Made by a program: the position numbers and the translations under genes. Positions 10,961-51,877 of a stretch of 64,000 bases of DNA are shown piece by piece. The stretch is from contig JBGPUE010000005.1 in the NCBI GenBank assembly GCA_041491005.1, positions 1,165 through 65,164 of the forward strand. The letters run 5' to 3'. Origin of the DNA: Candidatus Binataceae bacterium (lineage in GTDB: Bacteria; Desulfobacterota; Binatia; Binatales; Binataceae). Each line of letters starts with the position of its first letter. The first letter of the stretch is position 1. Under the pieces are notes generated by a model that saw nothing but the letters and a program-made list of their open reading frames with translations, searched no databases and was not told the origin of the DNA.

Positions 10961-11048
10961 CAGCTGATCTTACGCTCCGGCCAAAGGCAAGTCATGCTTT
11001 CGGCTTTTGTGATTGCGTCGAGCAACGCGGCCTTAACAGCGCTGTTTA

Positions 11049-11588: not shown

Positions 11589-11642
11589 TTTTCACTCCTG
11601 TGCAATATGCGCCGCGTTCATCTGCTAAAATCCCGCCGCGGT

Positions 11643-13256: not shown

Positions 13257-13426
13257 TTGGGCCCGGCCCTAGAACGAGTCTCAGATCGGAGCACTGCGAG
13301 ACCACCGCGGCGCGGCCTGAACCACGTCCGCGGCAACAAGTAGAGCGCCGAGCGGGCGCAGCGGGCCGCGACGAACCGCGATCGTTAAGTCAGAGTCTGT
13401 CCCGCCGGGGCATCGGCTTCGCTCCG

Positions 13427-33611: not shown

Positions 33612-34373
33612 ATGCCCTTCACTGCCAGATATGGGGCCGCCAAAGCCCTGTTGTGCGCCATCGGTCTGCTCGCATTTGCGGGCTGCTCGAACAGCGCGAA
33701 CAGCAGTGACGACGTGGCGCGTGCGAGCGTCAGCGGTGGGGGAGTCGAGCAATGCGCGGGCATGATGTCGGCCGCAATGACGGTCGAAGAGGATGAATCG
33801 AATTATCGGATCAAACCCGGCGACGACTTGGCGGTCAATTTTTATCTGAACACCGAGTTCAACGATGAGGTGACGGTGCGTCCGGACGGCAAGATCAGCT
33901 TGCGCCTGGTTGGCGAGATCAACGCCCGCGATTTGACGCCGGCGCAGCTCGCGGCAAACATCGACAAGGCCTACGCCGACGAACTTCGCGATCCTGGCGC
34001 GACCGTTCACGTCAAGGGCAGCCCGAGCCGGCGGATCTATGTGCACGGCGAAGTGGTAAAGCCGGGCGCTCTTCCGCTTCAACCCCGGATGACCGCCGTG
34101 CAGGCAGTGGCGGAGTCGGGCGGATTGACGCCTGATGCCGGCGCCGATCGCGCCATCCTGATGCGCCGTGACGCCTGTGGCCAGCCTTACGGGATCCCGT
34201 TCAATCTCGACCACGCCGCACACGAGGGCAGTTCCCACGATGACTTGGTGCTGCTGCCCGGTGACGTGATCGTGGTGCCGCGTTCGAAGGTCGCCGACAT
34301 CGGGTTATTCGTGAAGCACTACTTCAAGGACCTGCTCCCGGTTAACCCCTACATACCGCTGGTGCCTTTCTAG
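33612..34373 (+). CDS. Outer-membrane polysaccharide export lipoprotein (Wza/GumB/EpsE-like; PES domain plus SLBB)
   Basis: It has the lipobox LAFAGC and the YRIKPGDDLAVNFYLNTEFNDEVTVRPDGKISLRLVGEINARDLTPAQL signature of the Poly_export domain. Confidence 0.8.
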   Translation: MPFTARYGAAKALLCAIGLLAFAGCSNSANSSDDVARASVSGGGVEQCAGMMSAAMTVEEDESNYRIKPGDDLAVNFYLNTEFNDEVTVRPDGKISLRLVGEINARDLTPAQLAANIDKAYADELRDPGATVHVKGSPSRRIYVHGEVVKPGALPLQPRMTAVQAVAESGGLTPDAGADRAILMRRDACGQPYGIPFNLDHAAHEGSSHDDLVLLPGDVIVVPRSKVADIGLFVKHYFKDLLPVNPYIPLVPF

Positions 34374-34393: not shown

Positions 34394-35908
34394 ATGACGG
34401 TCCAGCAAATATTCGAATCCTGGCTTGAACTGGCCTTCAGGCGGCGCACCACTGTTTCGCGCGTCGCGGTGGCGGTGTTCGGCACGGTGTTCGTGCTGAC
34501 GATGCTGTGGCCGCCGCTGTACCAGTCCAGCAGCAAAATCATGATCCAGATCAATCGCGCCAACCTGTTGGTTTCACCCGGACTGGAGACCGGTGCGGCC
34601 AATCCAGCCAACGTGATTGCCGCTCCGGTCGACGAGCAGGACTTGAACTCCGAAATCGAACTGCTCACCAGCCGTCAGCTCGTCGAGCACGCCCTGGAGG
34701 GCCTGACCGACAGCAAACATCAGAGCTTCATGGGCCGCATGGTTTCGATGATCAAGAGCGTGATCGACCTGCCGGGATCGGTGTACGGCGTGCTGCACAG
34801 CTCGCCGGAGATGACGCCGCGCCAGCAATGGGCCAGCGAGCTGGCTGCACGGTTATCGTCCTCGGTGATCAAGCGTTCGAATGTCATCGAAGTGGACTTC
34901 CGCGCGCACGATCCGCAGTGGGCCGAAACCTTCCTGCGGCGGCTGCTCGATCAGTACATGGAGTTCCACGCGCGGATCTCGCAAGACCCGCAGACCGAGA
35001 GGTTCTTCCAGCAACAGTCAGAGATTTTGCAGGAAAGGCTGCGCCGCTCCGAAGAGAAGCTCAAAGCACTCGAGCTGCAGACCGGCATCACTTCGCTGGC
35101 CGAGCAGAAGCAGGCGCTGGTCACGCAGCTGTCTTCCTTCGAAGCCGAATACCGCAGGAACAAGGCGCTGCTGGCGGCCACCCAGCAGCAGGTTGTCTCG
35201 CTGGGTGTCGAACTGGGCAAGAGCCCTGAGAAGAGCACGCGCGAGTCCAAGGTCGTCCAGAACAACGCTCTGCAACAGCTCAAGCCCCAAGTGATGGCGA
35301 TGGAGGCGGAGCGCGCCGAGCTGCTCAGCCGCTACACGCCGACCAGCGCGCGCATTCGTGAAATCGACGCCAAGCTGGACGCCGCCCGCAAGATCCTCCA
35401 CCGCGAGAATCAGAGCGAGGTTCAAGAGACCAACATCGGCGTCAACCCGATATGGGAACAACTCAGCGGCAAGCTTGCAGAGGCGCGCGTCGCGGTCGCC
35501 TCGATCGGTTCCAACCAGGAAGCGCTTCAACAGCAGATTGAGGAGTATCGCGAACAGCTCAAGGCGCTCGCCACCGATGGCATCGAAGTCGAGCGGCTGC
35601 AGCGCCAGGTCGAAACCGACAAGGAAGCCTACCTGTCATACACCCGCAAGGGCGAAGAAGCGCGCGCGGCCCAGGCCCTGAACCAAAGCAAGATTCTTAA
35701 CGTCACCATCGTCGAAGCGCCGACCCAGCCGTTGCATCCGGTTTCGCCGCGTCTGGAAGTCAACCTTGCGGCGGGGCTCGTATTCGCGATCGCACTGGCG
35801 CTCGGCATCGCATGGTGGGAAGAACGCCGCGACCCGCGCATTTACTCGGAGGCCACCATCGCGGAAGTAACCGGGCTCAAAACCATCGCCGCTCTGCCGC
35901 AATCCTGA
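34394..35908 (+). CDS. Polysaccharide chain-length determinant protein (PCP-2/GumC/ExoP N-terminal type, no kinase domain)
   Basis: It has an N-terminal TM, a long periplasmic coiled-coil region and a C-terminal TM (LAAGLVFAIALALGIAWW), the typical Wzz/Wzc N-domain layout. Confidence 0.75.
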   Translation: MTVQQIFESWLELAFRRRTTVSRVAVAVFGTVFVLTMLWPPLYQSSSKIMIQINRANLLVSPGLETGAANPANVIAAPVDEQDLNSEIELLTSRQLVEHALEGLTDSKHQSFMGRMVSMIKSVIDLPGSVYGVLHSSPEMTPRQQWASELAARLSSSVIKRSNVIEVDFRAHDPQWAETFLRRLLDQYMEFHARISQDPQTERFFQQQSEILQERLRRSEEKLKALELQTGITSLAEQKQALVTQLSSFEAEYRRNKALLAATQQQVVSLGVELGKSPEKSTRESKVVQNNALQQLKPQVMAMEAERAELLSRYTPTSARIREIDAKLDAARKILHRENQSEVQETNIGVNPIWEQLSGKLAEARVAVASIGSNQEALQQQIEEYREQLKALATDGIEVERLQRQVETDKEAYLSYTRKGEEARAAQALNQSKILNVTIVEAPTQPLHPVSPRLEVNLAAGLVFAIALALGIAWWEERRDPRIYSEATIAEVTGLKTIAALPQS

Positions 35909-35923: not shown

Positions 35924-37393
35924 ATGTACTACCAGCACTTCGGACTTAGCGGCCATCCCTTCCTGCTGACGCCTGACCCTGCGCTGCTCTACATGAGCTC
36001 GGCGCATCGTGAGGCGCTGGCGGCGCTGGAATGGGGACTCAGCGAGCCCAGCGGCCTGACGCTGATGGTGGGCGAGGTGGGCACGGGCAAGACCACGCTC
36101 ATCCACTCACTGTTGCTGCGCCATCATGAGGGCGTCCGGCCGGTCGTCATCAGCCAGCCGACGCTCGCCTTCGAGGAGATGCTACGCCTGATTCTCGCCC
36201 AACTGGGCATCAAGCCGGCGGCGGCAGCGACCCGCTTCGAGATGATCCAGGCGCTGAGCAATTCGCTGGCTGCACTGAAATCCAGCGAACGGATCGCATT
36301 GATCATCGATGAATCGCAGGCGCTCAGCGATGCGACGCTGGAGGAGTTGCGCCTGCTCTCCAATCTTTCGATCGGCGACCACGCACCACTTCAGATCGTA
36401 CTGGTCGGCCAGATCGACCTGCTGCGGCGGCTCAATACGCCGACGCTGCGCCAGCTCAACCAGCGCATCGGCGCCCGCGCGCTGCTGCTGTCGCTGAACT
36501 ACTCGGAGGCGTATGGCTATGTCGAGCACCGCCTCCAGCTCAAGGGACGCAGTTCGGACGAAGTGTTTACCCGCGGCGCCTTGCGCCGCATCGTGTACCA
36601 CGGCCGCGGCATTCCGCGGCGCATCAACGTACTCGGCCACAATTCGATGACGCTGGCGTACGCGGCGGGCGCCAGCCGCGTCAGCGCCGCGATGGCGCAG
36701 GCGGCCGCCGCGGAGTACGACGACCTGCTCAAAGCGAACCGGCCGAGCCTGGCCTTGGTCTGGCAGTCGCTGGCGCGCTTCATCCTGCGGCCTGCCGCGT
36801 CCGGCCGCCGCGGCCCCAGGCCGCTTCAGGTCGTGCTTGCGCTGCTGGCGATCGGGGCAATTCTCAGCCCGGTGGTGAGCCGCTGGAACCGAATCGACGC
36901 CACGCTTGCCCATCTGAAGTCTCGCGCCGAGCACGAGCTCGGCTCTTCGATGAACGATACGCGACGCGCGGCGGCGGTCGCTGAGGAGCAGTTGCGCACT
37001 GCAAGCACGAGCCTGGTCTCGGGCGGCGGCGACGAACCGCAACTCACAGCCAATCCGGCCCCGGTTCGCGCTCCAGTTAGCGCGCCGCAGAGCGACCAGC
37101 ACGCCGCGGGCACGGCAGAGCTGTTTGCCCACGTGGCCCAAACGGCCTCGGCTCCCGGCGCTAGCACGGCGCAGCCGGCCGCCGAAGACGGCCAGAGTGC
37201 CGATGAACTAAATGTCGTGGTCCGGCCGGGCGACACCCTGAGCGGCATCGCGCTGACGCATCTTGGGTCAAACCGGACTTCGCTGGTTGCCAAACTCCTT
37301 GAAGCCAACCCGCAGATCAGCAACGCGGACGTGATCCATCCCGGCCAGCGCCTCAATCTGCCGTCCGTCAACCAGCCGTCGGTACGGGAGTAG
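35924..37393 (+). CDS. ExeA/GspA-like AAA ATPase with C-terminal LysM domain (resembles the PEP-CTERM-locus secretion ATPase)
   Basis: It has Walker A GEVGTGKTT in the N-terminal ATPase module (MYYQHFGLSGHPF...) and a C-terminal LysM (VVRPGDTLSGIALTHLGSNRTSLVAKLLEANPQISNADVIHPGQRLNLP). Confidence 0.75.
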   Translation: MYYQHFGLSGHPFLLTPDPALLYMSSAHREALAALEWGLSEPSGLTLMVGEVGTGKTTLIHSLLLRHHEGVRPVVISQPTLAFEEMLRLILAQLGIKPAAAATRFEMIQALSNSLAALKSSERIALIIDESQALSDATLEELRLLSNLSIGDHAPLQIVLVGQIDLLRRLNTPTLRQLNQRIGARALLLSLNYSEAYGYVEHRLQLKGRSSDEVFTRGALRRIVYHGRGIPRRINVLGHNSMTLAYAAGASRVSAAMAQAAAAEYDDLLKANRPSLALVWQSLARFILRPAASGRRGPRPLQVVLALLAIGAILSPVVSRWNRIDATLAHLKSRAEHELGSSMNDTRRAAAVAEEQLRTASTSLVSGGGDEPQLTANPAPVRAPVSAPQSDQHAAGTAELFAHVAQTASAPGASTAQPAAEDGQSADELNVVVRPGDTLSGIALTHLGSNRTSLVAKLLEANPQISNADVIHPGQRLNLPSVNQPSVRE

Positions 37394-37398
37394 AAGCA

Positions 37399-38169
37399 TT
37401 GGCCAAATTTTTCGAAGCGCTGAAACGTTACGAAGCCGAGCAGGCGCTCGAGCACACCCCGGTGCCCGAGACCCGGCCGGTCCGCAATCTAAGCGCCGTC
37501 GAGATGCCGGCGTTGCTGACCCCGGTGCCGGTTGGACCCGCCGTGCCGGGGCATCTCGCGCGTGCCGACGGGATACGCCATCTGACCGAAAAAATAGCGC
37601 CGCTGGCGTGCCTCAACAGCGCCATCCGGCTGGGCATCAGCGGCTGCCGTCCCGGCGACGGGGCGTCGAGCGTCGCCGCAAGTATCGCGATCGATTTGAG
37701 CCAGCGTCTGGCGCTGAGAATCCTGCTGCTCGACGCGCATCTGCGCCACCCGAGCCTGTTCCGGATGTTCTCGATCAGCGACCCGATGATCGCGGAGGCG
37801 ACGCCGAGCACGCGAGTGCTGATTCGACCCACGCGCTGGCCGCGGCTGGATGTGGCGAGCTGTATGCCGCCGGCCGAGCGCGAGCATCAGCAACGGTTTT
37901 TCGAGGATACCGAGCAGCTTATCAACCGCTATCCGATCGTCGTCATCGATCTCGGCGTGCTGCGGCTTGACGCGCGCATGCTGCCGCTGGCGCGCGCCAC
38001 CGATCCGATCCTGCTGATCGTGCGCTACGGCTACACCGAGCGGCGCGAGCTGGCCACCACCGCGACCGCGCTGGCGGCCGCCAATCGACAAATCGGCGGC
38101 GTGGTACTCAACGCCCGGCGCAGACCGGCCCCGGCTTTCGTTGATCGCATTTTCGGCACAGGAGCCTGA
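37399..38169 (+). CDS. BY-kinase/MinD-like P-loop protein with degenerate Walker A (Lys replaced by Ala); putative pseudo-kinase
   Basis: The region GISGCRPGDGASSVAASIAIDL aligns to the BY-kinase Walker A xxSxxPGEGKSTxxxNLA but has GAS in place of GKS. The Walker A'-like VVIDLG and the B-like DPILLIVRYGYT are retained. It has a TTG start and lies immediately after the ATPase gene. Confidence 0.55.
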   Translation: MAKFFEALKRYEAEQALEHTPVPETRPVRNLSAVEMPALLTPVPVGPAVPGHLARADGIRHLTEKIAPLACLNSAIRLGISGCRPGDGASSVAASIAIDLSQRLALRILLLDAHLRHPSLFRMFSISDPMIAEATPSTRVLIRPTRWPRLDVASCMPPAEREHQQRFFEDTEQLINRYPIVVIDLGVLRLDARMLPLARATDPILLIVRYGYTERRELATTATALAAANRQIGGVVLNARRRPAPAFVDRIFGTGA

Positions 38170-38171
38170 TA

Positions 38172-39272
38172 ATGAGTTTACAATCCACTCTTCCCGCCGC
38201 CCGCCCCGCCGCCGGCGACAAGCGCCCGGCAGCCGAACCGCGCCTGCGCGGTATGGCGGTCGTCGGCCTGGGTTATTGGGGACCCAACTGGGTGCGCAAT
38301 CTGTCGCAGACGCGCAGTGCCCGGCGCCTGATCGCTTGCGATCTCTCCGAGGAGCGCCGCGAGCATATCAGCCGGCTTTACCCCAGCGTCGAAGTGACCT
38401 CGAGCTTCGACGACGTCTTGGAGGACTCCGACATCGAGGGCGTCATCGTCGCCACTCCGGTCAAGACGCACTACGAGATGGCGCGCAAATGCCTGCTGGC
38501 TGACAAGTCGGTGCTGGTCGAGAAGCCGCTGGCGACCTCGAGCGCCGAAGCCGCCGCGCTGGTGCACATCGCACGCGAGCGTGGCCGCGCACTGATGGTC
38601 GGACACACCTTCGAGTACAGCGCGCCGGTACTCAAGACTCGCGAGATCATCAATTCGGGCGAGCTTGGCGATGTCTTCTACATCAGTTCGATTCGCGCCA
38701 ACCTCGGCCTGTTCCAGCGCGACATCAACGTGGCGTGGGATCTCGCCACCCATGACATCTCGATCATCCTGATGCTGCTGGGGCGGCTGCCGGAAGCGGT
38801 TAGCTGCCAGGGCCAGAGCCATTACAATCCGGCGGTTGAAGACGTCGCGCTGCTGACCCTGCATTTCTCCCGCAACGTGATGGCCTTCATCCACGTCAGC
38901 TGGCTGGATCCCAACAAGATCCGGCGCACCACCATCGTGGGGTCCAAGAAGATGCTGGTGTACGACGATACCGCTCCGCAGGAAAAGATCCGCGTCTACG
39001 ACAAGGGCGTGGCGGTCAGCCGCTACTACGACACCTTCGGCGACTTTCAGTTCTCCTATCGCTACGGCGACATTTACATTCCCCGCATCGAGGAGTCTGA
39101 GCCGCTTAAGTTGGAGTGCGAACACTTCGTCGATTGCATCAAGACCGGGGCCACGCCGAACACCGACGGGCTCAATGGCCTGCGCGTGGTGAGCGTGCTC
39201 GAAGCGGCCGGCGCCTCGCTGCGCAACGGCGGCGGGCCGGTGCCGATCAACAGCATGGCGAGGATGGACTGA
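38172..39272 (+). CDS. Gfo/Idh/MocA-family NAD-dependent sugar oxidoreductase (WbpB/WlbA-like UDP-sugar 3-dehydrogenase)
   Basis: It has a Rossmann N-terminus GMAVVGLGYWGPNWVRN and an EKP motif (LVEKPLA), consistent with the GFO_IDH_MocA family. Confidence 0.8.
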   Translation: MSLQSTLPAARPAAGDKRPAAEPRLRGMAVVGLGYWGPNWVRNLSQTRSARRLIACDLSEERREHISRLYPSVEVTSSFDDVLEDSDIEGVIVATPVKTHYEMARKCLLADKSVLVEKPLATSSAEAAALVHIARERGRALMVGHTFEYSAPVLKTREIINSGELGDVFYISSIRANLGLFQRDINVAWDLATHDISIILMLLGRLPEAVSCQGQSHYNPAVEDVALLTLHFSRNVMAFIHVSWLDPNKIRRTTIVGSKKMLVYDDTAPQEKIRVYDKGVAVSRYYDTFGDFQFSYRYGDIYIPRIEESEPLKLECEHFVDCIKTGATPNTDGLNGLRVVSVLEAAGASLRNGGGPVPINSMARMD

Positions 39273-39273
39273 G

Positions 39274-39789
39274 ATGGCCAAGCGCGAGCTTCCGCCCAAC
39301 GTCTGCGTCGCCGACGACGTCCGGCTCGGCGAGCGAGTCCGGCTGGCCGCGTTCGTAAATCTATACGGATGCGAAATCGGCGACGATTCGCGCGTCGGCG
39401 CATTCGTCGAGGTACAGCGCGGCGCGCGCATTGGCAGCCGCTGCAAGATTTCGAGCCATACCTTCATCTGCTCGGGCGTCGAAATCGAGGACGAAGTTTT
39501 CATTGGTCACGGCGTGGTCTTCATTAACGATCGCCGCCCGCGCGCTACCCGTCCCGACGGTGCGGCGCAGACCGAGAGCGATTGGGCGATGGAGCGCACC
39601 ATGGTGCGCCGGCGCGCGTCGATCGGCTCGGGCGCGATCGTCATGTGCGGCGTTGAAATCGGTGAAGGAGCGCTCGTCGGCGCGGGTGCGCTCGTCACGC
39701 GCGACGTGCCGCCCTACAGCGTGGTGGTCGGCTCGCCGGCCCGCGTCCGCGAACGACTCAAACTAACCACTAGTCAGGAGCTTCAATGA
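39274..39789 (+). CDS. Hexapeptide-repeat (left-handed beta-helix) N-acetyltransferase (WbpD/WlbB-like)
   Basis: Tandem [LIV]-G-x-x-x-x hexapeptides are present throughout (IGDDSRVGAFVEVQRGARIGSRCKISSHTFI...). Its size of 171 aa fits. Confidence 0.8.
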   Translation: MAKRELPPNVCVADDVRLGERVRLAAFVNLYGCEIGDDSRVGAFVEVQRGARIGSRCKISSHTFICSGVEIEDEVFIGHGVVFINDRRPRATRPDGAAQTESDWAMERTMVRRRASIGSGAIVMCGVEIGEGALVGAGALVTRDVPPYSVVVGSPARVRERLKLTTSQELQ

Positions 39790-40934
39790 TCAAGTTCGTA
39801 GATCTGGCGGCCCAAAACCTGGAAATCCGTGAGCGCGTCGAACGCGAGTTCGCCGCGATCCACGAAAAGACCGCCTATATTGGCGGACCTCAGGTCGCCT
39901 CCTTCGAGCACGAGTTCGCCGACTTTCTCGGCGCGCGCCGGGTGGTGGGCGTGGGTAGCGGCACCGACGCGCTCAGGCTGGTGTTGCTCGCGATGGGCGT
40001 CGGCCCGGGCGATGAAGTGATCACGACGCCGATGACCTTTATCGCGACTGCGGAGGCGATCGTGCAGGTCGGCGCGCTTCCGGTCTTCGCCGACATCGAT
40101 CCGGTGAGCTACAACCTGAGCCCGGCCGCGGTGCAGAAGTATTTGAAGGCGCGCCGCTGGTCCGCCAAAAACGGCCCGCGCGTCCTGATGCCGGTGCATC
40201 TGTACGGCCTGCCCGCGGCGATGGACGCGATGCGCGAGATCGCCGCGGCGCATCATCTACGAATCGTCGAGGATGCATGCCAGGCGCACGGCGCGCGCCT
40301 GCGCACCGCGCAAGGCTGGGTCAAAGCTGGCACCGTCAGTGAGGCCGGATGCTTCAGCTTCTATCCGGGCAAGAACCTGGGCGCCTGGGGCGAAGCCGGC
40401 GCGGTCGCGACCAACGATGAAGACCTCGCCAATCGCGTCGCCGTGCTGCGCGACCACGGTCGCATGTCGCATTACGGGCACCGCGACTATGGCTACAACG
40501 CGCGTCTGGACGCCGTGCAGGCGGCGGTACTGCGCGCCAAGCTCGAACGCTTGGCGGACTGGAACGCGCGCCGGCGCACGATTGCGTCGATGTACCGCGA
40601 GCTGCTCGCGGACAGCGGCGTCGATGTCCCGATCGAGCCTGAGGGCTACGAGTCCTGCTACCACCTGTTCGTGATCCGCACACCCGGGCGCGACGTGATT
40701 CGCGAAGCGCTGACTAGGGCGGGCATCGAAAGCGGAGTGCATTACCCAGTGCCGCTTCATATGCAGCCAGCATGCGCCCAGCTTGGCTATCGGCCGGGCG
40801 ATTTCCCCAACGCTGAACGGCTGGCCGCGACCGCGCTTTCGCTCCCGATGCATCCGCATCTGAGCGATGAGCAGGTCGTCCAAATTGCCGCAGTCGTCCG
40901 CGAGGCCGCCAAAGAGGCGCGCGCCGCGGCTTGA
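39786..40934 (+). CDS. DegT/DnrJ/EryC1/StrS-family PLP-dependent sugar aminotransferase (WbpE/WlbC-like)
   Basis: It has GSGTDALRLVL, an FYPGKNLGAWGEAGAV region with the PLP lysine, and HYPVPLHMQPA. There is a 4-bp overlap with the upstream gene. Confidence 0.85.
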   Translation: MIKFVDLAAQNLEIRERVEREFAAIHEKTAYIGGPQVASFEHEFADFLGARRVVGVGSGTDALRLVLLAMGVGPGDEVITTPMTFIATAEAIVQVGALPVFADIDPVSYNLSPAAVQKYLKARRWSAKNGPRVLMPVHLYGLPAAMDAMREIAAAHHLRIVEDACQAHGARLRTAQGWVKAGTVSEAGCFSFYPGKNLGAWGEAGAVATNDEDLANRVAVLRDHGRMSHYGHRDYGYNARLDAVQAAVLRAKLERLADWNARRRTIASMYRELLADSGVDVPIEPEGYESCYHLFVIRTPGRDVIREALTRAGIESGVHYPVPLHMQPACAQLGYRPGDFPNAERLAATALSLPMHPHLSDEQVVQIAAVVREAAKEARAAA

Positions 40935-40947
40935 GCGGCGCCGAACG

Positions 40948-42384
40948 ATGTTTGCCGGAGAAATAAGAAAGCGCAAGGCGCTGTATGCCGTGGTGGACGC
41001 GCTCGCCCTGATGGTCGCGTTCGCGGGTGCGCTGGCGCTCCACGATCCCGAGGGCGCGCTGGTCAACCGGATGGCAGCCGCGAGTCCGCTATTGCTGCTG
41101 GTTGGCGCGATGGCGCTGGCATTTGCGTGGGTGCTGGTTTTTCACGCCTTCGATCTCTACCGCTTCCGCAACGGCGGTCTGGACGAGAACATCGCGGTGG
41201 CCAAGGCCTGCACCGTCGCCTTCGCGCTGTCGCTGGGATTGGAGTTCTTCGCCCATCTGGATCTATCGCGGCTGAGCCTTCTGAGCGGCTACCTGATGAG
41301 CGTGCCGTTCGTAATGATCGGACGGGCAGCGCTTCGCCGCGCAATCCGGCGCCTGTACGCGGATCCCAAGATCACCATCCCGCTGGTGATCGTCGGCTTC
41401 AATCCGATCGGGCAGTACTTGTGCGATCAGATTCTGGACGATCTCAACCAGTACGAGTTCCTGGGCTTTGTCGATGACGGTGAGCTCGATCGCGCCTACC
41501 GCGGTTATGGCGTGCTGGGCACAATTGATCAGCTGGGCGGCATCGCCGCAGAGCAACCGTCGGTTGAGGCAGCTATCGCGCTGCCCGACGCCCCCCTCGA
41601 ACGCCATCAGCAGGTGATCGCGCTGTGCGAGCAGCATCGCATCCAGTGGCGCCTGGTACCGTGGCTGTTCCGTTCGCTGTCAGCCGGCTTCAAGGTCGAC
41701 ATGGCGGGCATCATCCCCTTGATCGGGCCGCGCAGCTGCAACATCGAGGGACTCAACTACGTCATCAAACGCGGCTTCGATATCACGATCGCGTCGATGG
41801 TGCTGATCCTGGCGGCGCCCCTGATGCTGCTGGCAGCGTTGCTGATCTGGATCACGGATGGACGGCCGATCCTGTTCCGCCAGAAGCGGGTGGGGCTGCA
41901 TGGCCGCTCCTTCGAATTCCTGAAGTTTCGCACGATGCACAACGACGCCGGTGACCAGGTGCATCGCGAGTACGTCAAGGACTGGATCCAGAAGAACGGT
42001 TCATCCGCGCAAACTAACGGCAACGGCGAGAAGGTCTTCAAGCTCACTTGCGATCCGCGCATCACGCCGCTGGGCCGCTGGCTGCGCCGCTTCAGCATCG
42101 ACGAGCTGCCGCAGATCATCAACGTGCTGCGCGGCGAGATGAGCCTGATCGGTCCGCGCCCGGCGCTGCCCTACGAGCTGGAGCTCTATCGGGATTGGCA
42201 CCGGCGCCGGCTTGACGCCCCGCCGGGTATCACGGGCCTGTGGCAGGTCGGGGGCCGCAATCAGCTCGGCTTCGACGATATGGTCCGGCTCGATATCGAA
42301 TACCTCGAAGGATGGACGCTGGCAGGCGACCTGCGCATCCTCGCGCGGACTCTGCCCGCGCTCTTCCATGGAAGAGGCTATTGA
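40948..42384 (+). CDS. Undecaprenyl-phosphate sugar-1-phosphate transferase (WbaP/EpsB-like priming glycosyltransferase)
   Basis: It has N-terminal TMs, a central CoA-binding-like region and the C-terminal bacterial sugar transferase domain (KRGFDITIASMVLILAAPLMLLAALLIWITDGRPILFRQKRVGLHGRSFEFLKFRTM ... LIGPRPALPYE). Confidence 0.85.
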   Translation: MFAGEIRKRKALYAVVDALALMVAFAGALALHDPEGALVNRMAAASPLLLLVGAMALAFAWVLVFHAFDLYRFRNGGLDENIAVAKACTVAFALSLGLEFFAHLDLSRLSLLSGYLMSVPFVMIGRAALRRAIRRLYADPKITIPLVIVGFNPIGQYLCDQILDDLNQYEFLGFVDDGELDRAYRGYGVLGTIDQLGGIAAEQPSVEAAIALPDAPLERHQQVIALCEQHRIQWRLVPWLFRSLSAGFKVDMAGIIPLIGPRSCNIEGLNYVIKRGFDITIASMVLILAAPLMLLAALLIWITDGRPILFRQKRVGLHGRSFEFLKFRTMHNDAGDQVHREYVKDWIQKNGSSAQTNGNGEKVFKLTCDPRITPLGRWLRRFSIDELPQIINVLRGEMSLIGPRPALPYELELYRDWHRRRLDAPPGITGLWQVGGRNQLGFDDMVRLDIEYLEGWTLAGDLRILARTLPALFHGRGY

Positions 42385-42413
42385 ACACCGCGTCGAACAA
42401 TTCCACGCCCGGC

Positions 42414-43895
42414 ATGAAGGGCGAGCGTTCGCTGTGGTCGAGTTTCGCGCGCGGCGTACGCGACAACCTGCTGGCGGAATTCGGCGTCCAGGCCATCCGG
42501 CTGGGCGGATTCGTGCTGCTCGCGCGCGCGCTGGACCCGTCTGACTTCGGATTGTTCCGCGCGCTGCTCGCGGTCACTGCGATTTGGGCCTTGGCCAGCG
42601 AAGCAGGCATCCCCGATGCGCTCATCCAGCGCGAGGATCTGACTGAGCGCCACGAATCGACCGCCTGGTGGATGAGCATCGGCTTGGCCCTGTTTTCCGC
42701 GTCTACGCTCTACGCCTGCGCGCCGCTTGTCGCGCGGCTGATGCAGATGCCGTCGCTGACCTGGTCGCTGCGCCTGCTGAGTATCCCGCTCTTCATGGAA
42801 GGTACATCCGCCGTCGCCAATGGCCTGCTGAGGCGGCGGCTGGAGTTCGGCGCACTGGCGAAGGCGGATGTATTCGCCGAGATCGGATTCCTGGCTTGCG
42901 CGATGGCGCTGCTCGAATTCGGTATGCCGCGATGGGCGCTGCCGGCCGCACTGGCCTTACGCTTCACAATCCATGCGCTGGCTGTCTGGATCGCGGCGCG
43001 CTACGTGCCGCGCTCGGCGCCGCAACTGGCCGCGGCGCGCGATCTCGGCAACTTCTCGATGCGCGTGTTGGGCGGGCGCATCCTCGCCACCGCATCCGCC
43101 AACGCCGACTATCTAATGGTCGGGCGGCTGCTCGGCAGCCAGGCGCTGGGCTTTTACGGGATGGCCTGGGACCTGCTGCGCTTCATCCCGGATCGACTGC
43201 ACAAGGTCGCTGGCCGCGTGGCGCTGCCGGCCTTCTGCCGCATCGCGGATCGCAACGAAGAGCTGGCGCAGGCGTTTCGTGATTTCATCTCGTACATCAG
43301 CCGTATCGTGCTTCCAATCGTCGTATGCGCGGCGGTCGCGGCACCCGAAATTATCGGCGGGATCTACGGCCAGAAGTGGGTTGGCGCGGCGATGCCGCTG
43401 CGGCTGCTCTCAATCGGGCTCGCGCTAGGCGGACTTCGCTTCCCGATCGGCGCCATCTTCTATGCGAAGAACCGTCCGGAATTCGATATCTATCTGCACA
43501 GCATGCGGCTGGCCCTGATCGTTACGACGATCAGTCTGGTCGCGGGCGCCGGACTGTATGGCGTCAGCGCGGGCATGAGCGCGGTCGAGACGGTGGTCAG
43601 CTTCGGCGGATTCTGGCTGGCATGCGCCCCAATCGGGCTCGGCCTCCTGAGCCTCGCGGCCGCATGCATGCCGGGCCTCAACGTCGCGCTGTGGTGCGGG
43701 CTGGCGACTGCCATTGGACGCGCGATCGTGATGGCGGCGGGAATTAGCGGTGCGGCCGCACTGCCGGTGATCATAGCCCCACCCGCGCTGGTCTTCTGCT
43801 GGCTCCAGCTAGGCACCGCACGGCAACTGGCCACGATGGCCTTCAGGCCCAAGAGCATCGATCTGACCGCCAACGTGGCGGGAGGGCAGGCATAA
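42414..43895 (+). CDS. Wzx-like polysaccharide flippase (MOP superfamily)
   Basis: It has about 12-14 TM helices and a polysaccharide-biosynthesis-protein-like N-terminus (GVRDNLLAEFGVQAIRLGGFVLLARAL). The start is chosen at the first ATG after the upstream stop. Confidence 0.7.
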   Translation: MKGERSLWSSFARGVRDNLLAEFGVQAIRLGGFVLLARALDPSDFGLFRALLAVTAIWALASEAGIPDALIQREDLTERHESTAWWMSIGLALFSASTLYACAPLVARLMQMPSLTWSLRLLSIPLFMEGTSAVANGLLRRRLEFGALAKADVFAEIGFLACAMALLEFGMPRWALPAALALRFTIHALAVWIAARYVPRSAPQLAAARDLGNFSMRVLGGRILATASANADYLMVGRLLGSQALGFYGMAWDLLRFIPDRLHKVAGRVALPAFCRIADRNEELAQAFRDFISYISRIVLPIVVCAAVAAPEIIGGIYGQKWVGAAMPLRLLSIGLALGGLRFPIGAIFYAKNRPEFDIYLHSMRLALIVTTISLVAGAGLYGVSAGMSAVETVVSFGGFWLACAPIGLGLLSLAAACMPGLNVALWCGLATAIGRAIVMAAGISGAAALPVIIAPPALVFCWLQLGTARQLATMAFRPKSIDLTANVAGGQA

Positions 43896-43897
43896 TT

Positions 43898-44962
43898 ATG
43901 GGCGCCCCCGCGCATAACATCGCCCACGTGGACGCAGCTGAGATGGAGCTTCAGTTCCGGCCCTATAGCGAAGCGCGCGAGTCATGGCGGGAACTGGCCG
44001 CGAGTACGCGCGGCGCGACGCTGTTCCATCGCGAACCCTGGCTTGAACTGCTGAGCGAGACTCAGGGCGTAAAGCTGTTCGTCGCCTCCGTAGGTCAGGG
44101 CGATCATCAAGCCGCGTGTCTGTTCGGCCGCTCTCATTCGCGCTTCTCGCGCCGGTTGGTGGCTTTACCATCGTCGGATTCATGCGAGCCGCTGGCGACC
44201 GATGCCGAGGCCGCGGCGGCGCTGCTCGACGCGCTGGTGCGAAGCGAATACGCCCGCGACGGGCTGGAGATCCGCGGCGTGGCGGCGCCGGCGCCATGGC
44301 GGCTGGTGGAATGCTTTGCGGACTGGTCAATCGACTTCACGCGCCCATACTCGATGATCGAGCGCGATACCGCAGAGAACTACCGTCGCCAGCTCAAGCG
44401 GGCGCGGCGAGCGGGCTTCAGCATCGATTGCGGTCGCAGCATCGACTACCTCGAGCGGTTCTATTCACTGCAGCTGCAAACGCGCCGCCGGCTGGGTGTA
44501 CCGCCGCAGCCGCTGGAGTTCTACCGGCAGGTTCACCGGGTGTTCCGGGCCCATGGTGCGATCGAGATTTGGATCGCGTCGCAGGGCGGCCGCGATGAGG
44601 CGGCGCTGGTACTGCTGCGCGACGGCTACGAGCTGCATTACAAATGGGGCGCGCGCCGCGATGACATGAGTCAGGGCGCCAACCACGTTCTCTTCGCCAG
44701 CGTCTTCGAGCATTACGCGGGCAAAATCTGCCGGCTCAACCTTGGCCGTGCCGACACGCGCAACCAGGGCCTGAGCCGCTTTAAGCGCGAACTGGGCGGC
44801 CGCTCGCGCTCGATCCCTTACGCCTTCTATCCCAAGGCACCGGCCAACATTAGCGCCGAAGTGCTCAGCGGCCCGCGCAAGATGGTCTCGCAGCTATGGT
44901 GTCATTTGCCGCTGGGCGCCACGCGCGTGCTCGGCGCGATCGCATACCGGTTGCTGGCATGA
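43898..44962 (+). CDS. FemAB-like / BioF2-like acyltransferase (resembles the PEP-CTERM-system-associated FemAB family)
   Basis: It is 354 aa with the layout FHREPWLELL...LFVASVGQGDHQAACLFGRSH ... LHYKWGARRDDMSQGANHVLFASVFEHYAGKICRLNLG, consistent with the GNAT-like Acetyltransf_6 fold of FemAB relatives. Confidence 0.55.
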   Translation: MGAPAHNIAHVDAAEMELQFRPYSEARESWRELAASTRGATLFHREPWLELLSETQGVKLFVASVGQGDHQAACLFGRSHSRFSRRLVALPSSDSCEPLATDAEAAAALLDALVRSEYARDGLEIRGVAAPAPWRLVECFADWSIDFTRPYSMIERDTAENYRRQLKRARRAGFSIDCGRSIDYLERFYSLQLQTRRRLGVPPQPLEFYRQVHRVFRAHGAIEIWIASQGGRDEAALVLLRDGYELHYKWGARRDDMSQGANHVLFASVFEHYAGKICRLNLGRADTRNQGLSRFKRELGGRSRSIPYAFYPKAPANISAEVLSGPRKMVSQLWCHLPLGATRVLGAIAYRLLA

Positions 44963-45816
44963 GGAAGTATCTCGCCATCACACCGGCCCGCGATGAGCAG
45001 GCGCTGCTGCCCAACCTGATCGCCTGCATGGTGAGTCAGACGGTGCGGCCCGAGCGCTGGATTGTCATCGACGATGGGTCGGGCGACGCCACCGGCGAGA
45101 TCATCGATCAGGCCGCCGCCCAGCATCCCTGGATCGAGGCGCATCACGTTCCACGCGGCAAGCCGCGCGCCCCAGGCGGCGAGTCGGTTTTGATGAACTA
45201 TCTGCCCGCCGAGCTGTGGGGACGGTTCGACTTCATCCTGCGGCTCGACGCGGACCTCACCTTTGGCCCCGAGTATGTCGATCATCTGATGCGGGAGTTC
45301 GCGCGCGATCCCAAACTCGGTATCACGGGCGGAACGCTCTTCGAGCCGGCCGGCAATCATTGGCGCGAGGTGCGCCAGCCGGCTTTTCACGTACGCGGCG
45401 CGACCAAGATGTACTCGCGTGCCTGTTTCGGCGCGATCGGAGGACTGGAAGCGGCGCTGGGCTGGGACACTATCGATGAAGCTCGCGCGATGATGCTCGG
45501 CTTTCGCAGCCGCAGCTTCCGGCATATTCGCGCTTTTCATCACCGGCCTGCGGGCAGCGCGGCCGGCCGATGGCGCGGTCATCTGGCGGCCGGCCGGGCC
45601 GCATTTTACGCTGGCTACTCGCCGGTCTACATGATGGCGCGTGCACTCAAGCGAGCGACGGAGCCGCCGTGGGTAACTAGCGGTGTGTTGCTGCTGGTGG
45701 GGTACTTCGAAGGATATTTGCGCCGGCGGCAGATGGTGGACGACCCGAAGTTGGTGAAATTCGTGCGGCGGCAGCAACTGCGCCGGCTGGCCAAGATGGA
45801 CTCGGTATGGCGCTAG
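44959..45816 (+). CDS. Family 2 glycosyltransferase
   Basis: It has the N-terminus LAITPARDEQALLPNLIACMVSQTVRPERWIVIDDGSGDATGEII (GT-A fold with DxD-like DDGS) and a 4-bp ATGA overlap with the upstream gene. Confidence 0.75.
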   Translation: MRKYLAITPARDEQALLPNLIACMVSQTVRPERWIVIDDGSGDATGEIIDQAAAQHPWIEAHHVPRGKPRAPGGESVLMNYLPAELWGRFDFILRLDADLTFGPEYVDHLMREFARDPKLGITGGTLFEPAGNHWREVRQPAFHVRGATKMYSRACFGAIGGLEAALGWDTIDEARAMMLGFRSRSFRHIRAFHHRPAGSAAGRWRGHLAAGRAAFYAGYSPVYMMARALKRATEPPWVTSGVLLLVGYFEGYLRRRQMVDDPKLVKFVRRQQLRRLAKMDSVWR

Positions 45817-47027
45817 CCGCAACCAACTCCATGGCAAGCAGGCCGCAGCCTGCAGGCTCCAATCCGGACTGGAGCAACGACGCATTTACGTTCTGGAAGT
45901 TGCCCACCCACTCCCGGGAGGCGCTCGAGCCATCGATCGTGGCCTCGGTGGCGATCGCTGAATGGCACATGTTCGAACGCTATCTGCCCGAGCGCGATCG
46001 CCATCAGCACTCGGTGCTGCGCGCCTACTACCTGCTCAAACGCTTCGTGCCGCTATGGCTGCGGCATGCGGGCAACTCTCTGATGGCTCGTTCGCGCCGC
46101 GTCGATTTTCCGGCTTGGCCACGGGAAACCTCGCTGATGGATTTCTGGACCGAATGGTTGGAGCAGAGCCTGATCGCGATGAAAGTCACCGAAGGCTGGC
46201 ACATCGGGTTCTGGCCCGAGGGCCGCGACTGCTGTATCGCGCTCACCCACGACGTCGAGAGTCCGTCCGGATTCGCCCGCATGGAGCGGATGGCCGAGAT
46301 GGAAGCGCATTACGGTTTCCGTTCGGCTTGGAACCTGCCGCTGGATCAGTACCCGATCGACTGGAAGATCGTCGAGCGTCTGCGTGCGCGTGGGTTCGAA
46401 TTCGGCGCGCATGGGCTCAACCACGACGGGCGCCTGTTCCGCTCGCGCGAGGACTTCCAGGAGCTGGCGCCGCGCGTGGAGCGGCTTGCGCGCGAGCACG
46501 GGTTGCGCGGCTTCCGCTCGCCCTCGACGCTGCGCAACGTCGAGTGGATACCGACGATGGATTTCGACTACGACGGCAGCTTTTCGGACACCGATCCGTA
46601 CGAGCCTCAGCCGGGCGGCACCTGCAGCATCTTCCCGTTCTTCCTGGGCGCGATGGTCGAGCTGCCCTACACGCTGGCGCAGGATCATACCCTGACGACC
46701 CTGCTCCATCGCTGCGCGATCGACGTGTGGCGCGCAAAGGCCGACTGGATCGCTTCGCTGGGCGGGATGATCCTGACGCTGGTGCATCCCGACTACTCAG
46801 GCGCGGGCGCCGGCCTGCGCGAATACGAGGACCTACTCAAGCATCTGAGCCGCATCCGCTCGGCGTGGCGCGCCTTGCCAGGCGAAGTCGCGGCATGGTG
46901 GCGGCGGCGGGCGCTGATGGAACTCAGCATCGAGGCCGGGCGTCCGGTGATAACAGGCCCCGATATCGCCGGAGGTGTCGCCCGGCGATTGGCGAGCGAA
47001 CCGCTGGCTCATCGCAGGTCGACGTAG
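45807..47027 (+). CDS. Polysaccharide deacetylase-like protein (CE4-related, D-V-E variant motif)
   Basis: The segment CIALTHDVESPSGF is followed by GFEFGAHGLNHD, consistent with NodB-homology motifs where DVE replaces DD. The assignment is from motif recall, so moderate. Confidence 0.5.
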   Translation: MALAATNSMASRPQPAGSNPDWSNDAFTFWKLPTHSREALEPSIVASVAIAEWHMFERYLPERDRHQHSVLRAYYLLKRFVPLWLRHAGNSLMARSRRVDFPAWPRETSLMDFWTEWLEQSLIAMKVTEGWHIGFWPEGRDCCIALTHDVESPSGFARMERMAEMEAHYGFRSAWNLPLDQYPIDWKIVERLRARGFEFGAHGLNHDGRLFRSREDFQELAPRVERLAREHGLRGFRSPSTLRNVEWIPTMDFDYDGSFSDTDPYEPQPGGTCSIFPFFLGAMVELPYTLAQDHTLTTLLHRCAIDVWRAKADWIASLGGMILTLVHPDYSGAGAGLREYEDLLKHLSRIRSAWRALPGEVAAWWRRRALMELSIEAGRPVITGPDIAGGVARRLASEPLAHRRST

Positions 47028-47029
47028 CT

Positions 47030-48199
47030 ATGGCGCGCTTCCTGATTGTCGCCTACACGCACTTCTACCGTGACGGGCGCGTCAAGCGTCACGCCGAAGC
47101 GCTCGCGCGCCGCGGCGACTCGGTCGACGTCATTTGCCTGGCGAGCGAGCTGCGTGGCGAGACGCTTCCAGGCGTCAATGTAATCGGGCTCGGCATCAAG
47201 CGTTACCGTGGCGGCAGCCGCCGCGCCTACATGAGCAGCTACGTGGGATTCTTCGCGAGCGCCGCAGCTCGCGCGACCCTCCTCTCGCTCAAGCATCGCT
47301 ACGATGTCGTGATCGTCTGCACGATGCCCGATGCCGCAGTGATCACCTCGATTGTGCCGCGTCTGATGGGCAGCAAGGTCGTGCTCGACGTGCATGACAC
47401 CATGCCTGAATTGTACCAGGACAAGTTCGGGGGAACGCGTGGCGCCGTCGGTGCGCGGCTGCTGATGTGGGAAGAGCGCGCTAGCGCCCTGCTGGCTCAT
47501 CGCGTGGTGGCAGTTCACGATCTGCACAAGCAGCGCCTCATCGAGGCTGGTATTCCAGCGGACAAGATCCGGGTCGTGATGAACCTGCCCGACGCGCGCA
47601 TCTTCAAACCATCATGCAATGGCGGGCCGCCGATCGAGGGGCCCTTCCAGCTGGTGTGCCACGGCACCATCGCCTACCGATTGGGGATCGATGTCGCGAT
47701 CCAGGCGATGGACCTGCTGCGTGAGCGGATTCCAAACGCCTGTCTCAAGATCATCGGCGATGGTGACTATCTGCCGCAGGCGAAAGAACTGGCGAATCGG
47801 CTGAAGCTGGGTTCGCGCGTTGAGTTCCAGCGTCCGGTGCCGGTGGAGGAGTTGCCCGCGATTCTTAAGGAGGCCTCGCTCGGCTTGGCGCCGAATCGGG
47901 CCAGCAGCGCGACGCATCTGATGTTGCCAGTCAAGGCAATGGAGTACGCCGTACTGGGAATTCCGGTCGTTGCCTCGCGGCTGCGAACGATAGAACATTA
48001 TTTCGGTAGTGCGGTCCGATACTTCACGCCGGGTGATGCGCGTGAACTCGCCGACGCGATCGAGGATCTGTATCGGCATCCCGAGGAACGTTCGCTGCTG
48101 GCTCGCCGCGCGAGCCTGATCGTGAGGGATTACGACTCGCAGGCGCGGCGCGAAGAGCATCTGAAGGCGATCGACCCTTTGATGAACGAGGAGGCATGA
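47030..48199 (+). CDS. Family 4 (GT-B, group 1) glycosyltransferase
   Basis: The N-terminal domain is MARFLIVAYTHFYRDGRVKRHAEALARRGDSVDVI. The C-terminal EX7E-type region is VVASRLRTIEHYFGSAVRYFTPGDARELADAIEDL. Confidence 0.8.
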   Translation: MARFLIVAYTHFYRDGRVKRHAEALARRGDSVDVICLASELRGETLPGVNVIGLGIKRYRGGSRRAYMSSYVGFFASAAARATLLSLKHRYDVVIVCTMPDAAVITSIVPRLMGSKVVLDVHDTMPELYQDKFGGTRGAVGARLLMWEERASALLAHRVVAVHDLHKQRLIEAGIPADKIRVVMNLPDARIFKPSCNGGPPIEGPFQLVCHGTIAYRLGIDVAIQAMDLLRERIPNACLKIIGDGDYLPQAKELANRLKLGSRVEFQRPVPVEELPAILKEASLGLAPNRASSATHLMLPVKAMEYAVLGIPVVASRLRTIEHYFGSAVRYFTPGDARELADAIEDLYRHPEERSLLARRASLIVRDYDSQARREEHLKAIDPLMNEEA

Positions 48200-48963
48200 C
48201 AGTGGAAGAGGGCGTGACTCTGGTGGTCGGATTAGGGGAAGTCGGTGGTGCGCTGGCTGAAATCCTGGAGCGCAAGGGACCAGTCGCACGCCACGATATC
48301 CAGCCGGTCCAGATTCCAGGGCCGATCAACGTGATGCACATCTGCTTCCCATTTAAGGATGTACGCCAATTCGAGAGTCTGTCGCTCTCCTACATCCGCC
48401 GTTTCAATCCCTCGCTGGTGATCATCAACAGCACAGTGACGCCGGGCACGACGCGCGCGATCGCGCGATCCAGCGGCGCCGCGGTCGCGTACTCGCCGGT
48501 ACGCGGCAAGCACGTCAAGATGGTCGAAGATCTTTTGCATTACGATAAATTCGTCGCGGCGCCTGACGCCGAGACGGCGCGGCGCGCTGAAGAGCATCTC
48601 CGGGCGCATGGGCTCAAGACCCGCCACGTCGCGAAGCCCGAGACGCTGGAACTGGCCAAGCTCGCCGAGACTACCTATTTCGGCGTGCTGATCGCCTATG
48701 CGCAGGAGCTCAACCGGTATTGCGAGCAGGTTGGCGCTGACTATTCCGAAGCGATCAAGTTCTTCGAAGAGGTGCAATTCTTCCCGCGCTCGGAGTACTT
48801 TCCGGGCTTCATCGGCGGGCATTGCGTGATGCCCAACATCGAGATCCTGCTCAAGATCCTGCCGGCGCCGTTGCTCAATGCCGTGGTCGATTCCAACCAA
48901 CGGCGTAGCGCGGAGCTCGAGGCCCAGTCACCGCCCAGGAAGGTTTCCAACGCCAAGCCGTGA
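48196..48963 (+). CDS. Short UDP-glucose/GDP-mannose dehydrogenase-family protein (NAD-binding plus central domain only; no C-terminal UDP-binding domain)
   Basis: It has a Rossmann N-terminus LVVGLGEVGGALAEIL, a central-domain helix ETLELAKLAETTYFGVLIAYAQELNRYCEQVGADYSEAIKFFEE and FIGGHCVMPNIEIL (cf. the GGSC catalytic-Cys motif). It ends at 255 aa. Confidence 0.4.
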   Translation: MTVEEGVTLVVGLGEVGGALAEILERKGPVARHDIQPVQIPGPINVMHICFPFKDVRQFESLSLSYIRRFNPSLVIINSTVTPGTTRAIARSSGAAVAYSPVRGKHVKMVEDLLHYDKFVAAPDAETARRAEEHLRAHGLKTRHVAKPETLELAKLAETTYFGVLIAYAQELNRYCEQVGADYSEAIKFFEEVQFFPRSEYFPGFIGGHCVMPNIEILLKILPAPLLNAVVDSNQRRSAELEAQSPPRKVSNAKP

Positions 48964-50360: not shown

Positions 50361-50408
50361 ACCCGCGCCTCGACTTGGATTCAAGCGCAAAGCGAATGGA
50401 GATCTCCG

Positions 50409-51866: not shown

Positions 51867-51877
51867 CACGACGGACA

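Follow-up and report, generated by a model that had tools for sequence, protein, structure and literature searches.

A BY-kinase homologue without the Walker A lysine as the probable pseudokinase partner of a PCP-2 protein in Binataceae-type bacteria

Two bacterial tyrosine kinase (BY-kinase) homologues, EcpK of Myxococcus xanthus and HfsB of Caulobacter crescentus, lack catalytic residues and the tyrosine (Tyr) tail and have been proposed to act as phosphorylation-independent scaffolds of class 2 polysaccharide co-polymerases (PCP-2), the BY pseudokinase being paired with a PCP-2 in EcpK/EpsV and HfsB/HfsA (PMC12004946). Cuthbertson et al. are cited in the same work as listing further candidates in many Gram-negative bacteria (PMC12004946), and GumC has been called a pseudo-BY-kinase (PMC9800525). 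BY pseudokinases were experimentally defined only recently (EcpK, in 2025) and proposed to be widespread, and the locus described here supports that proposal. It lies within a 64,000-nucleotide stretch of a Candidatus Binataceae bacterium genome (assembly GCA_041491005.1, contig JBGPUE010000005.1, positions 1,165 to 65,164; hereafter the window), where the fourth gene of a co-oriented operon encodes a stand-alone BY-kinase-like protein with alanine in place of the Walker A lysine (Lys). The phenomenon itself is already known; what is new is a large, conserved, phylum-restricted clade with a partly preserved nucleotide-binding site, found at 75 or more genome loci in the Binataceae (phylum Binatota), a little-studied group that is largely uncultured, and often present as two paralogous copies in a genome. 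This clade is intermediate between an active kinase and the motif-less EcpK, in that the catalytic residues and Tyr tail have been lost together while the nucleotide-binding scaffold has stayed under selection, a state that helps in asking whether nucleotide binding still serves as a switch in pseudokinases that partner PCP-2 proteins. The gene and its degenerate motifs are:

37399-38169, plus strand: BY-kinase-like pseudokinase gene, 256 amino acids, from the open reading frame (ORF) listing and translation
37642-37671, plus strand: degenerate Walker A loop, G82-C-R-P-G-D-G-A89-S-S91, from alignments to VpsO, CapB, Wzc and BceF
37723-37752, plus strand: Walker A'-like segment (residues 109-118), I109-L-L-L-D112-A-H114-L-R116-H-P118, from the alignment of LLIDCDLRKP with LLLDAHLRHP
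37936-37971, plus strand: Walker B-like segment, I180-V-V-I-D184-L-G186-V-L-R189-L-D191, from alignments and family columns

The relationship to BY-kinases, as claimed in the original prediction, was borne out by comparing the sequence with PDB sequences (phmmer) and an AlphaFold2 (AF2) model with PDB structures (Foldseek). The phmmer matches were BY-kinase domains with E values of 2.7e-7 to 8e-4, namely VpsO (6u1q, E 2.7e-7), CapA1B1 (4jlv), Wzc (3la6), BceF (6z0p), Etk (3cio) and CapAB (2ved and 3bfv); the single exception, a marginal match at E 0.035, was the Fe-S assembly factor CFD1. The AF2 model, with a predicted local distance difference test (pLDDT) score of 80 for the whole chain and above 90 for most of the 50-240 span, consists of an N-terminal helix (residues 2-17), a disordered linker (24-44), a P-loop core (48-240) and a short, basic, helical C-terminal tail (246-252) without a Tyr cluster. 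Foldseek ranks 1 to 49 were all BY-kinase chains (probability 1.0, template modelling score about 0.53-0.60), led by BceF, Wzc, CapAB, Etk and VpsO at about 0.58, and the best match outside the BY-kinases came only at rank 50. Weak, sub-threshold matches to the BY-kinase models TIGR01007, TIGR03029 and TIGR03018 were also obtained, the last of these, the XrtA/PEP-CTERM-associated tyrosine autokinase, at 36.8 bits against a curated cut-off of 230.65. A BY-kinase P-loop (SIMIBI-type) fold, as modelled, together with BY-kinase homology is thereby shown, with the Walker A, A' and B motifs at the same positions as in VpsO, Wzc, Etk, BceF and CapB.

The MinD/ParA/Mrp identity given in the JGI annotation was rejected, because its scores were sub-threshold (18 bits against a cut-off of 27.1 for PF10609; 16.5 against 450 for MrpORP) and the BY-kinase matches, in sequence and in structure, were consistently better. 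Neither Lys of the deviant Walker A motif KGGxGK[ST] is present in the protein. Relatives are labelled in databases as 'Mrp family chromosome partitioning ATPase' or 'tyrosine-protein kinase family protein', and neither label fits the features tested in this family; the attachment of Mrp-ATPase or tyrosine-kinase names to a family without the Lys is an annotation problem.

The translation of the ORF at 37399-38169 (plus strand) includes RLGISGCRPGDGASSVAASIAIDL, and a longer stretch of it reads RLGISGCRPGDGASSVAASIAIDLSQRL. Ala89, encoded by GCG at 37663-37665, is aligned on the invariant Walker A Lys, confirming the replacement noted in the original prediction. It falls on that position in all four printed phmmer alignments to PDB chains, in which GCRPGDGASS of the window protein stands against SCLPGEGKTT of VpsO (6u1q), KPGAGKST of CapB (4jlv), TPGIGKSF of BceF (6z0p) and SPSIGMTF of Wzc 3la6, the last being the K540M mutant. 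Neither a second, intact GK[ST] motif nor an alignment restoring the Lys was found across the protein.

The loss is shared throughout the family. A protein-database search gave 204 relatives, and the best 120 of these, 43-55% identical and mostly labelled Candidatus Binataceae, all read G/A-C-R-P-G/A-D-G-[A/T/V/C]-S-[T/S] at the P-loop. A profile search over 1.84 billion cluster representatives gave 16,340 BY-kinase-like matches at E <=0.001, with 50 at <=1e-30. Family members with both motif regions aligned scored at least 168 bits in this search; matches below about 170 bits were mainly fragments and partial matches, and canonical BY-kinases began at about 85 bits. Family and out-group sequences were then aligned to one hidden Markov model for column counts. 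Among the 170 family sequences aligned at the Lys column, Ala occurs in 133, Thr in 21, Val in 8, Cys in 4, Ser in 4 and Lys in none, and the columns of G82, G86, G88 and S90 are nearly invariant.

Canonical BY-kinases have the Walker A Lys, a second Walker A' Asp, the ExxRxxR oligomerization motif (O-motif) and a Tyr cluster, whereas the Binatota protein lacks all four. The second Walker A' Asp is the catalytic base in BY-kinases. In the window protein the first Asp (D112), R116 and P118 of this motif are kept and the second Asp is replaced by His114; column 114 holds His in 137 and Asn in 17 family sequences, compared with Asp in 47 and Asn in 27 of the out-group. In the Walker B segment D184 is invariant, and the canonical Pro-Pro pair is replaced by an invariant G186-V followed by the family-specific invariant residues R189 and D191. 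The O-motif reads D57-x-x-R60-x-x-T63; within the family, residue 57 varies, Arg or Gln stands at 60, and 63 is Ser, Thr or Ala and never Arg, where the out-group has Glu, Arg and Arg. The tail of the window protein, RRRPAPAFVDRIFGTGA, contains no Tyr, and only one of 150 family members has at least two Tyr in its tail. In the nearest out-group, at least three tail Tyr were counted in 41 of 52 Lys-bearing proteins compared with 2 of 25 Lys-less ones, so that loss of the Tyr tail accompanies loss of the Lys. Clade-wide loss is thus shown by these counts for the Walker A Lys, the Tyr cluster, the second Asp of Walker A' and the third residue, Arg, of the O-motif, whose first Glu is unconserved.

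What the family keeps is G82, G86, G88, S90 (the Mg ligand position), T/S91, D112, R116, P118, D184 and N238, and these conserved residues persist at 45-50% pairwise identity. A further set is near-invariant and specific to the family: R55, E64, C83, D99, R103, W147, R149, C155, G186, R189, D191 and R230. Of the two cysteines among these, C83 (37645-37647) is located inside the P-loop and is Cys in 169 of 170 sequences, and C155 (37861-37863), at the end of a beta-strand, is Cys in 134 sequences.

A different type of C-terminus was observed outside the family, where many BY-kinase-like proteins end in the 14 residues K-R-R-Y-x-I-P-x-x-[IL]-Y-x-R-[LIV] and have no Tyr cluster. This ending is present in the Lys-less proteins P0193, P0199, P0204, P0214, P0225, P0253 and P0254 and also in the Lys-bearing P0203 and P0209; P0204 and P0225 are fused PCP-2a forms. 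By its appearance a short, conserved helix at the terminus, it may be the counterpart of the Binatota family's xxPVAKPLRRLL tail.

The candidate partner is encoded two genes upstream:

34394-35908, plus strand: PCP-2 type chain-length protein without a kinase domain, 504 amino acids, with a GNVR domain, TIGR03007-like and with a partial match to TIGR01005

Hydropathy places its transmembrane segments at about residues 19-43 and 453-476, leaving a cytoplasmic tail of 29 residues, EERRDPRIYSEATIAEVTGLKTIAALPQS, with the consensus WEExxDPxIYSxAxIxExSGLxTVAVL across loci. On TIGR01005, a model of the fused PCP-2a form with 754 positions, the PCP spans positions 10-478 and the BY-kinase-like protein positions 551-717. 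Because this coverage is complementary, the two proteins correspond to the two halves of a Wzc-like protein. The arrangement is like that of the split (PCP-2b type) CapA/CapB system, in which a membrane PCP with a cytoplasmic tail of roughly 29 residues accompanies a soluble P-loop protein, and by this analogy the conserved PCP tail is presumed to be the docking partner of the pseudokinase. A fragment of an upstream ORF (L083) beside the Lys-less out-group protein P0185, on a contig of 1.8 kb, also matches the window PCP.

On every feature testable here the Binatota pseudokinase fits the EcpK/HfsB class; it is likened to both proteins by their published descriptions, not by sequence, and no EcpK- or HfsB-specific Pfam/NCBIfam model matched it. 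EcpK (MXAN_7447) likewise stands alone and has a BY-kinase fold in which the Walker A Lys and the Tyr-rich tail are missing, a short basic C-terminal helix taking the place of the unstructured tail (Blocher et al. 2025, PMC12004946). Its partner EpsV, like the window PCP, is a PCP-2 without a kinase domain and with a short cytoplasmic C-terminal tail (PMC12004946). Both the M. xanthus Eps pathway and the window are of the Wzx/Wzy type, and the window contains weak NCBIfam matches to an EpsY-like outer membrane polysaccharide export (OPX) protein and an EpsZ-like phosphoglycosyltransferase. The two systems differ in that EcpK reportedly has none of the three Walker motifs and is missing several elements of secondary structure (PMC12004946), whereas in the Binatota family the glycines of the P-loop, the Mg-binding Ser/Thr, the Walker B Asp and, from Walker A', the first Asp and the Arg are retained. 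Furthermore, ecpK is not adjacent to epsV, whereas the Binatota genes share one operon, usually with an AAA+ ATPase gene between them. HfsB is also stand-alone and without catalytic residues or a Tyr tail, and is needed with, and stabilizes, the kinase-less PCP-2 HfsA (PMC12004946). The HfsB/HfsA pair differs in belonging to another lineage and to the holdfast polysaccharide, and no AAA+/LysM gene is described in its module.

Taken together, the BY-kinase fold, the clade-wide loss of the Lys, the other catalytic losses, the coupling to a kinase-less PCP-2 and the published precedent (PMC12004946) lead to the reading that the window protein is probably a stand-alone BY pseudokinase, partnering a kinase-less PCP-2 in a split, phosphorylation-independent Wzx/Wzy exopolysaccharide (EPS) pathway of a Binataceae-type bacterium. 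The original prediction of a pseudokinase or scaffold partner of the chain-length protein is supported on the same grounds. The pseudokinase would act as the cytoplasmic partner of the PCP-2, with the PCP tail docking on it much as the CapA tail docks on CapB and the EpsV tail has been modelled on EcpK. Binding and unbinding of the pseudokinase would stabilize or organize PCP oligomers in place of cycles of Tyr phosphorylation, and an Mg-nucleotide may be held as a conformational cofactor without turnover.

Several observations weigh against this reading. The canonical ring-forming O-motif is unconserved in the family, which makes an octameric ring of the Wzc/CapB kind uncertain. A different interface may be formed by the invariant charged residues specific to the family. 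We infer the contact between PCP and pseudokinase from gene neighbourhood and analogy. The remnant of the P-loop is conserved together with R55, E64, D99, R103, R149, R189, D191 and R230, so the site is not simply decaying, and it may have a ligand-binding or residual enzymatic function. In E. coli K-12 no EPS is made with Wzc K540M (PMC9800525), so that a protein without the Lys cannot be assumed to function in a canonical system.

Within the pseudokinase reading, retention of Mg-nucleotide as a structural or switching cofactor without turnover is proposed only tentatively from the residues retained; non-canonical nucleotide binding was the alternative offered in the original prediction. It is made plausible by the strong conservation of the P-loop glycines, Ser90, Asp112 and Asp184, and by Wzc K540M, forms of which carry bound ADP or MgADP according to their PDB entry titles. 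Wzc K540M and CapB K55M are engineered Lys-less proteins that are catalytically dead and still folded; the former assembles into octamers (PDB titles; PMC9800525) and shifts with ATP-Mg to a closed, ring-competent state (PMC9800525). These laboratory mutants keep the Tyr tail and the O-motif, whereas the Binatota family lacks both, and the natural family, unlike the EPS-deficient K540M in E. coli K-12 (PMC9800525), is evidently maintained by selection. An extension of this idea, which we consider possible and rather doubtful, is a 'K540M-like' BY-kinase derivative in which occupancy by nucleotide or Mg, in place of Tyr phosphorylation, would switch the PCP-2 complex between assembly and disassembly, with R55, E64, R103, R189, D191 and C83/C155 forming a new oligomer or partner interface, possibly with the neighbouring membrane-anchored ATPase. 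If true, it would represent a third regulatory logic for Wzx/Wzy export, beside phosphorylation cycling and the motif-less EcpK scaffold.

The gene for that ATPase lies between those of the PCP and the pseudokinase:

35924-37393, plus strand: ExeA/GspA-like AAA+ ATPase, 489 amino acids, with AAA_22 and LysM matches

Both nucleotide-binding motifs of the ATPase are intact (Walker A GEVGTGKTT, Walker B IIDES), and a single transmembrane segment (299-321) is followed by a C-terminal LysM domain (432-480), which varies among orthologues, being present in locus L003 and absent in L001 (411 amino acids). Its closest model is the XrtA/PEP-CTERM-associated TIGR03015, at 204 bits, below the cut-off of 324.5. 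An energy supply by this ATPase, as suggested in the original prediction, would mean that it replaces the nucleotide cycle of the kinase and that its hydrolysis drives assembly and disassembly of the PCP and pseudokinase. This is improbable. Across the synteny set of 71 loci holding both PCP and pseudokinase genes, the ATPase gene sits between the two in 66, as such a role would favour, yet the remaining five (L014, L027, L047, L055 and L063) keep OPX, PCP and pseudokinase genes with no ATPase gene within 8 kb; the PCP-to-pseudokinase gap is 37-86 bp in four of these, and the called ORFs overlap in L047. In locus L082 an ATPase homologue (772-2046, 157 bits) directly precedes P0228, a canonical stand-alone BY-kinase that bears the Lys and a Tyr tail (GDGKS, LLVDGDLRKP, VIDSPP and ...SRYYAY). 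The ExeA/GspA architecture has a peptidoglycan-related role in the envelope, and the transmembrane segment and LysM domain of the window ATPase point to a similar role. The AAA+ ATPase PrmE of Sphingomonas LM7, likened to the window ATPase by AAA+ class and module organization alone, is required for promonan EPS production in a comparable module, although it adjoins the PCP PrmF and coexists with PrmG, regarded by the authors as a bona fide BY-kinase (PMC11340318). Given the five loci without it, the homologue in L082 and PrmE beside a BY-kinase, the ATPase family appears to accompany this type of EPS module as an independent accessory, without a link to the loss of the Lys.

Residual catalysis, as a kinase or an ATPase, would require a relocated basic residue (R84, R103 or R189) and, as substrate, another protein or the PCP rather than the protein's own tail; it is very improbable. 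Eukaryotic WNK kinases have a displaced catalytic lysine, the Mg ligands (S90, D112 and D184) persist in this family and the P-loop is clearly under purifying selection; against this, the catalytic base has become His or Asn and the Tyr cluster is absent from every member. The candidate basic residues are themselves well conserved: among family sequences, Arg occupies 153 of 170 at R84, inside the P-loop, 167 of 169 at R103 and 159 of 163 at R189, just after Walker B. R84, however, is replaced by Ala, Asn, Gly, Ser, Glu or Gln in divergent members that are still Lys-less, and the C-R-P triplet also occurs in Lys-bearing relatives such as P0203. Since it is present there, the Arg is not a compensating change, and its candidacy as the substitute basic residue is weakened. 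Activity in the absence of the Walker A Lys is, to our knowledge, not known for any P-loop NTPase of this class, and the BY-kinase mutants K540M and K589I are inactive (PMC9800525).

The chance that the Ala is a sequencing or assembly artefact, or the gene a decaying pseudogene, is negligible, since GCG lies two substitutions from AAG and is not a single-base error, the identical protein is recorded on two contigs (P0001), the Lys is missing from all 170 homologues, and the frame is intact with a third-position GC of 0.81 and invariant residues that persist at about 45-50% identity; a sequencing variant was accordingly rejected on the clade-wide conservation of the loss and the two-base codon distance.

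The third-position GC of the pseudokinase gene is typical of genes in this 64% GC window. The listed start of its ORF is a TTG at 37399. A Shine-Dalgarno-like GGGAG is located 8 nt 5' of this codon, directly before the stop codon of the preceding gene, and the N-terminus, M-A-K-F-F-E-A-L-K-R, compares with a conserved M-S-K-Y-Y-E-A-x-x-R in homologues. The TTG start is credible because of this upstream GGGAG and the N-terminal motif common to homologues, M-[SA]-K-[YF]-[YF]-E-A.

The remainder of the operon and the genes that follow are:

33612-34373, plus strand: short OPX (Wza-like) lipoprotein, 253 amino acids, lipobox LAFAGC, with Poly_export and one SLBB domain; first gene of the conserved operon
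38172-40934, plus strand: GFO/IDH/MocA dehydrogenase, hexapeptide acetyltransferase and DegT aminotransferase (domain matches)
40867-42384, plus strand: polyprenyl glycosylphosphotransferase (PGT; domain matches)
42240-43895, plus strand: Wzx-type flippase (domain matches)
43898-53371: FemAB-like protein, glycosyltransferases, Wzy_C protein and beta-helix protein

L001, L003 and about 70 genome loci have the same gene order, OPX-PCP-ATPase-pseudokinase-GFO-hexapeptide-DegT-PGT-Wzx. A genome scan with one genome per species gave 77 loci, of which 75 belong to the pseudokinase family, nearly all of them in metagenome-assembled genomes (MAGs) labelled Binataceae, Binatus or 'delta proteobacterium' and two labelled Candidatus Acidiferrales. 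Two copies, either on one contig or on separate ones, were seen in about ten MAG assemblies: L053/L061 (CAWCDG010000004.1), L059/L068 (CAVOUW010000003.1), L045/L070, L046/L071, L016/L074, L042/L048, L044/L050, L036/L060, L019/L079 and L047/L067. In these MAGs the whole nine-gene block from OPX to Wzx is doubled, with a Lys-less pseudokinase in each. Identity of the paired copies to the window protein is only about 35-45%, and they also differ from each other; an ancient duplication of the entire module seems to have taken place within Binatota.

The XrtA/PEP-CTERM (TIGR03027/03007/03018/03015) and promonan PrmD-E-F-G modules share with the window an OPX protein, a PCP, a BY-kinase-like protein and an AAA+ ATPase, and a FemAB-like gene (TIGR03019-like) is present in the window as in PEP-CTERM-type modules, with all window matches to PEP-CTERM models far below the curated cut-offs. 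The promonan kinase is described as bona fide (PMC11340318), unlike the Lys-less window protein. The window FemAB/GNAT-like protein (43898-44962, plus strand) matches TIGR03019 at 61.7 bits against a cut-off of 260, and together with the weak matches of the OPX, PCP, ATPase and kinase-like proteins it links the locus to PEP-CTERM-type EPS clusters. Sub-threshold matches of the OPX protein were pepcterm_export-like and EpsY-like. Short OPX proteins of M. xanthus work with a separate outer-membrane beta-barrel (EpsX), and no candidate barrel was recognized among the window ORFs scanned. Nor were a phosphotyrosine phosphatase, a second BY-kinase or an exosortase found by Pfam/NCBIfam in 46 window ORFs, about a dozen ORFs in the first 11 kb lying outside the scan.

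The best match of the GFO/IDH/MocA dehydrogenase in the 38172-40934 block is UDP-GlcNAc 3-dehydrogenase. As the dehydrogenase, acetyltransferase and aminotransferase form a WbpB/WbpD/WbpE-like trio, a 2,3-diacetamido sugar is suggested in the repeat unit. In one MAG (L002/L012, contig_69495), the GFO, hexapeptide and DegT genes are split into several short ORFs at 10765-13695, beside intact OPX, PCP, ATPase and pseudokinase genes; the broken sugar genes could be assembly frameshifts or real decay. Further downstream in the window, a nucleotide-sugar dehydrogenase-like ORF (48196-48963, plus strand) is short, with 255 amino acids covering only positions 113-299 of a 413-position model, and the ORF directly after it (48960-50360, 466 amino acids) has no family match. 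An ORF of 406 amino acids (45807-47027, plus strand) has no Pfam/NCBIfam match; its conservation extends to L001 and L003, where it occupies the same position. A listed ORF of 745 amino acids (45962-48199, plus strand), whose GT4 domains begin only at about residue 374, overlaps with it, and the true glycosyltransferase gene of 45962-48199 probably starts near 47,000.

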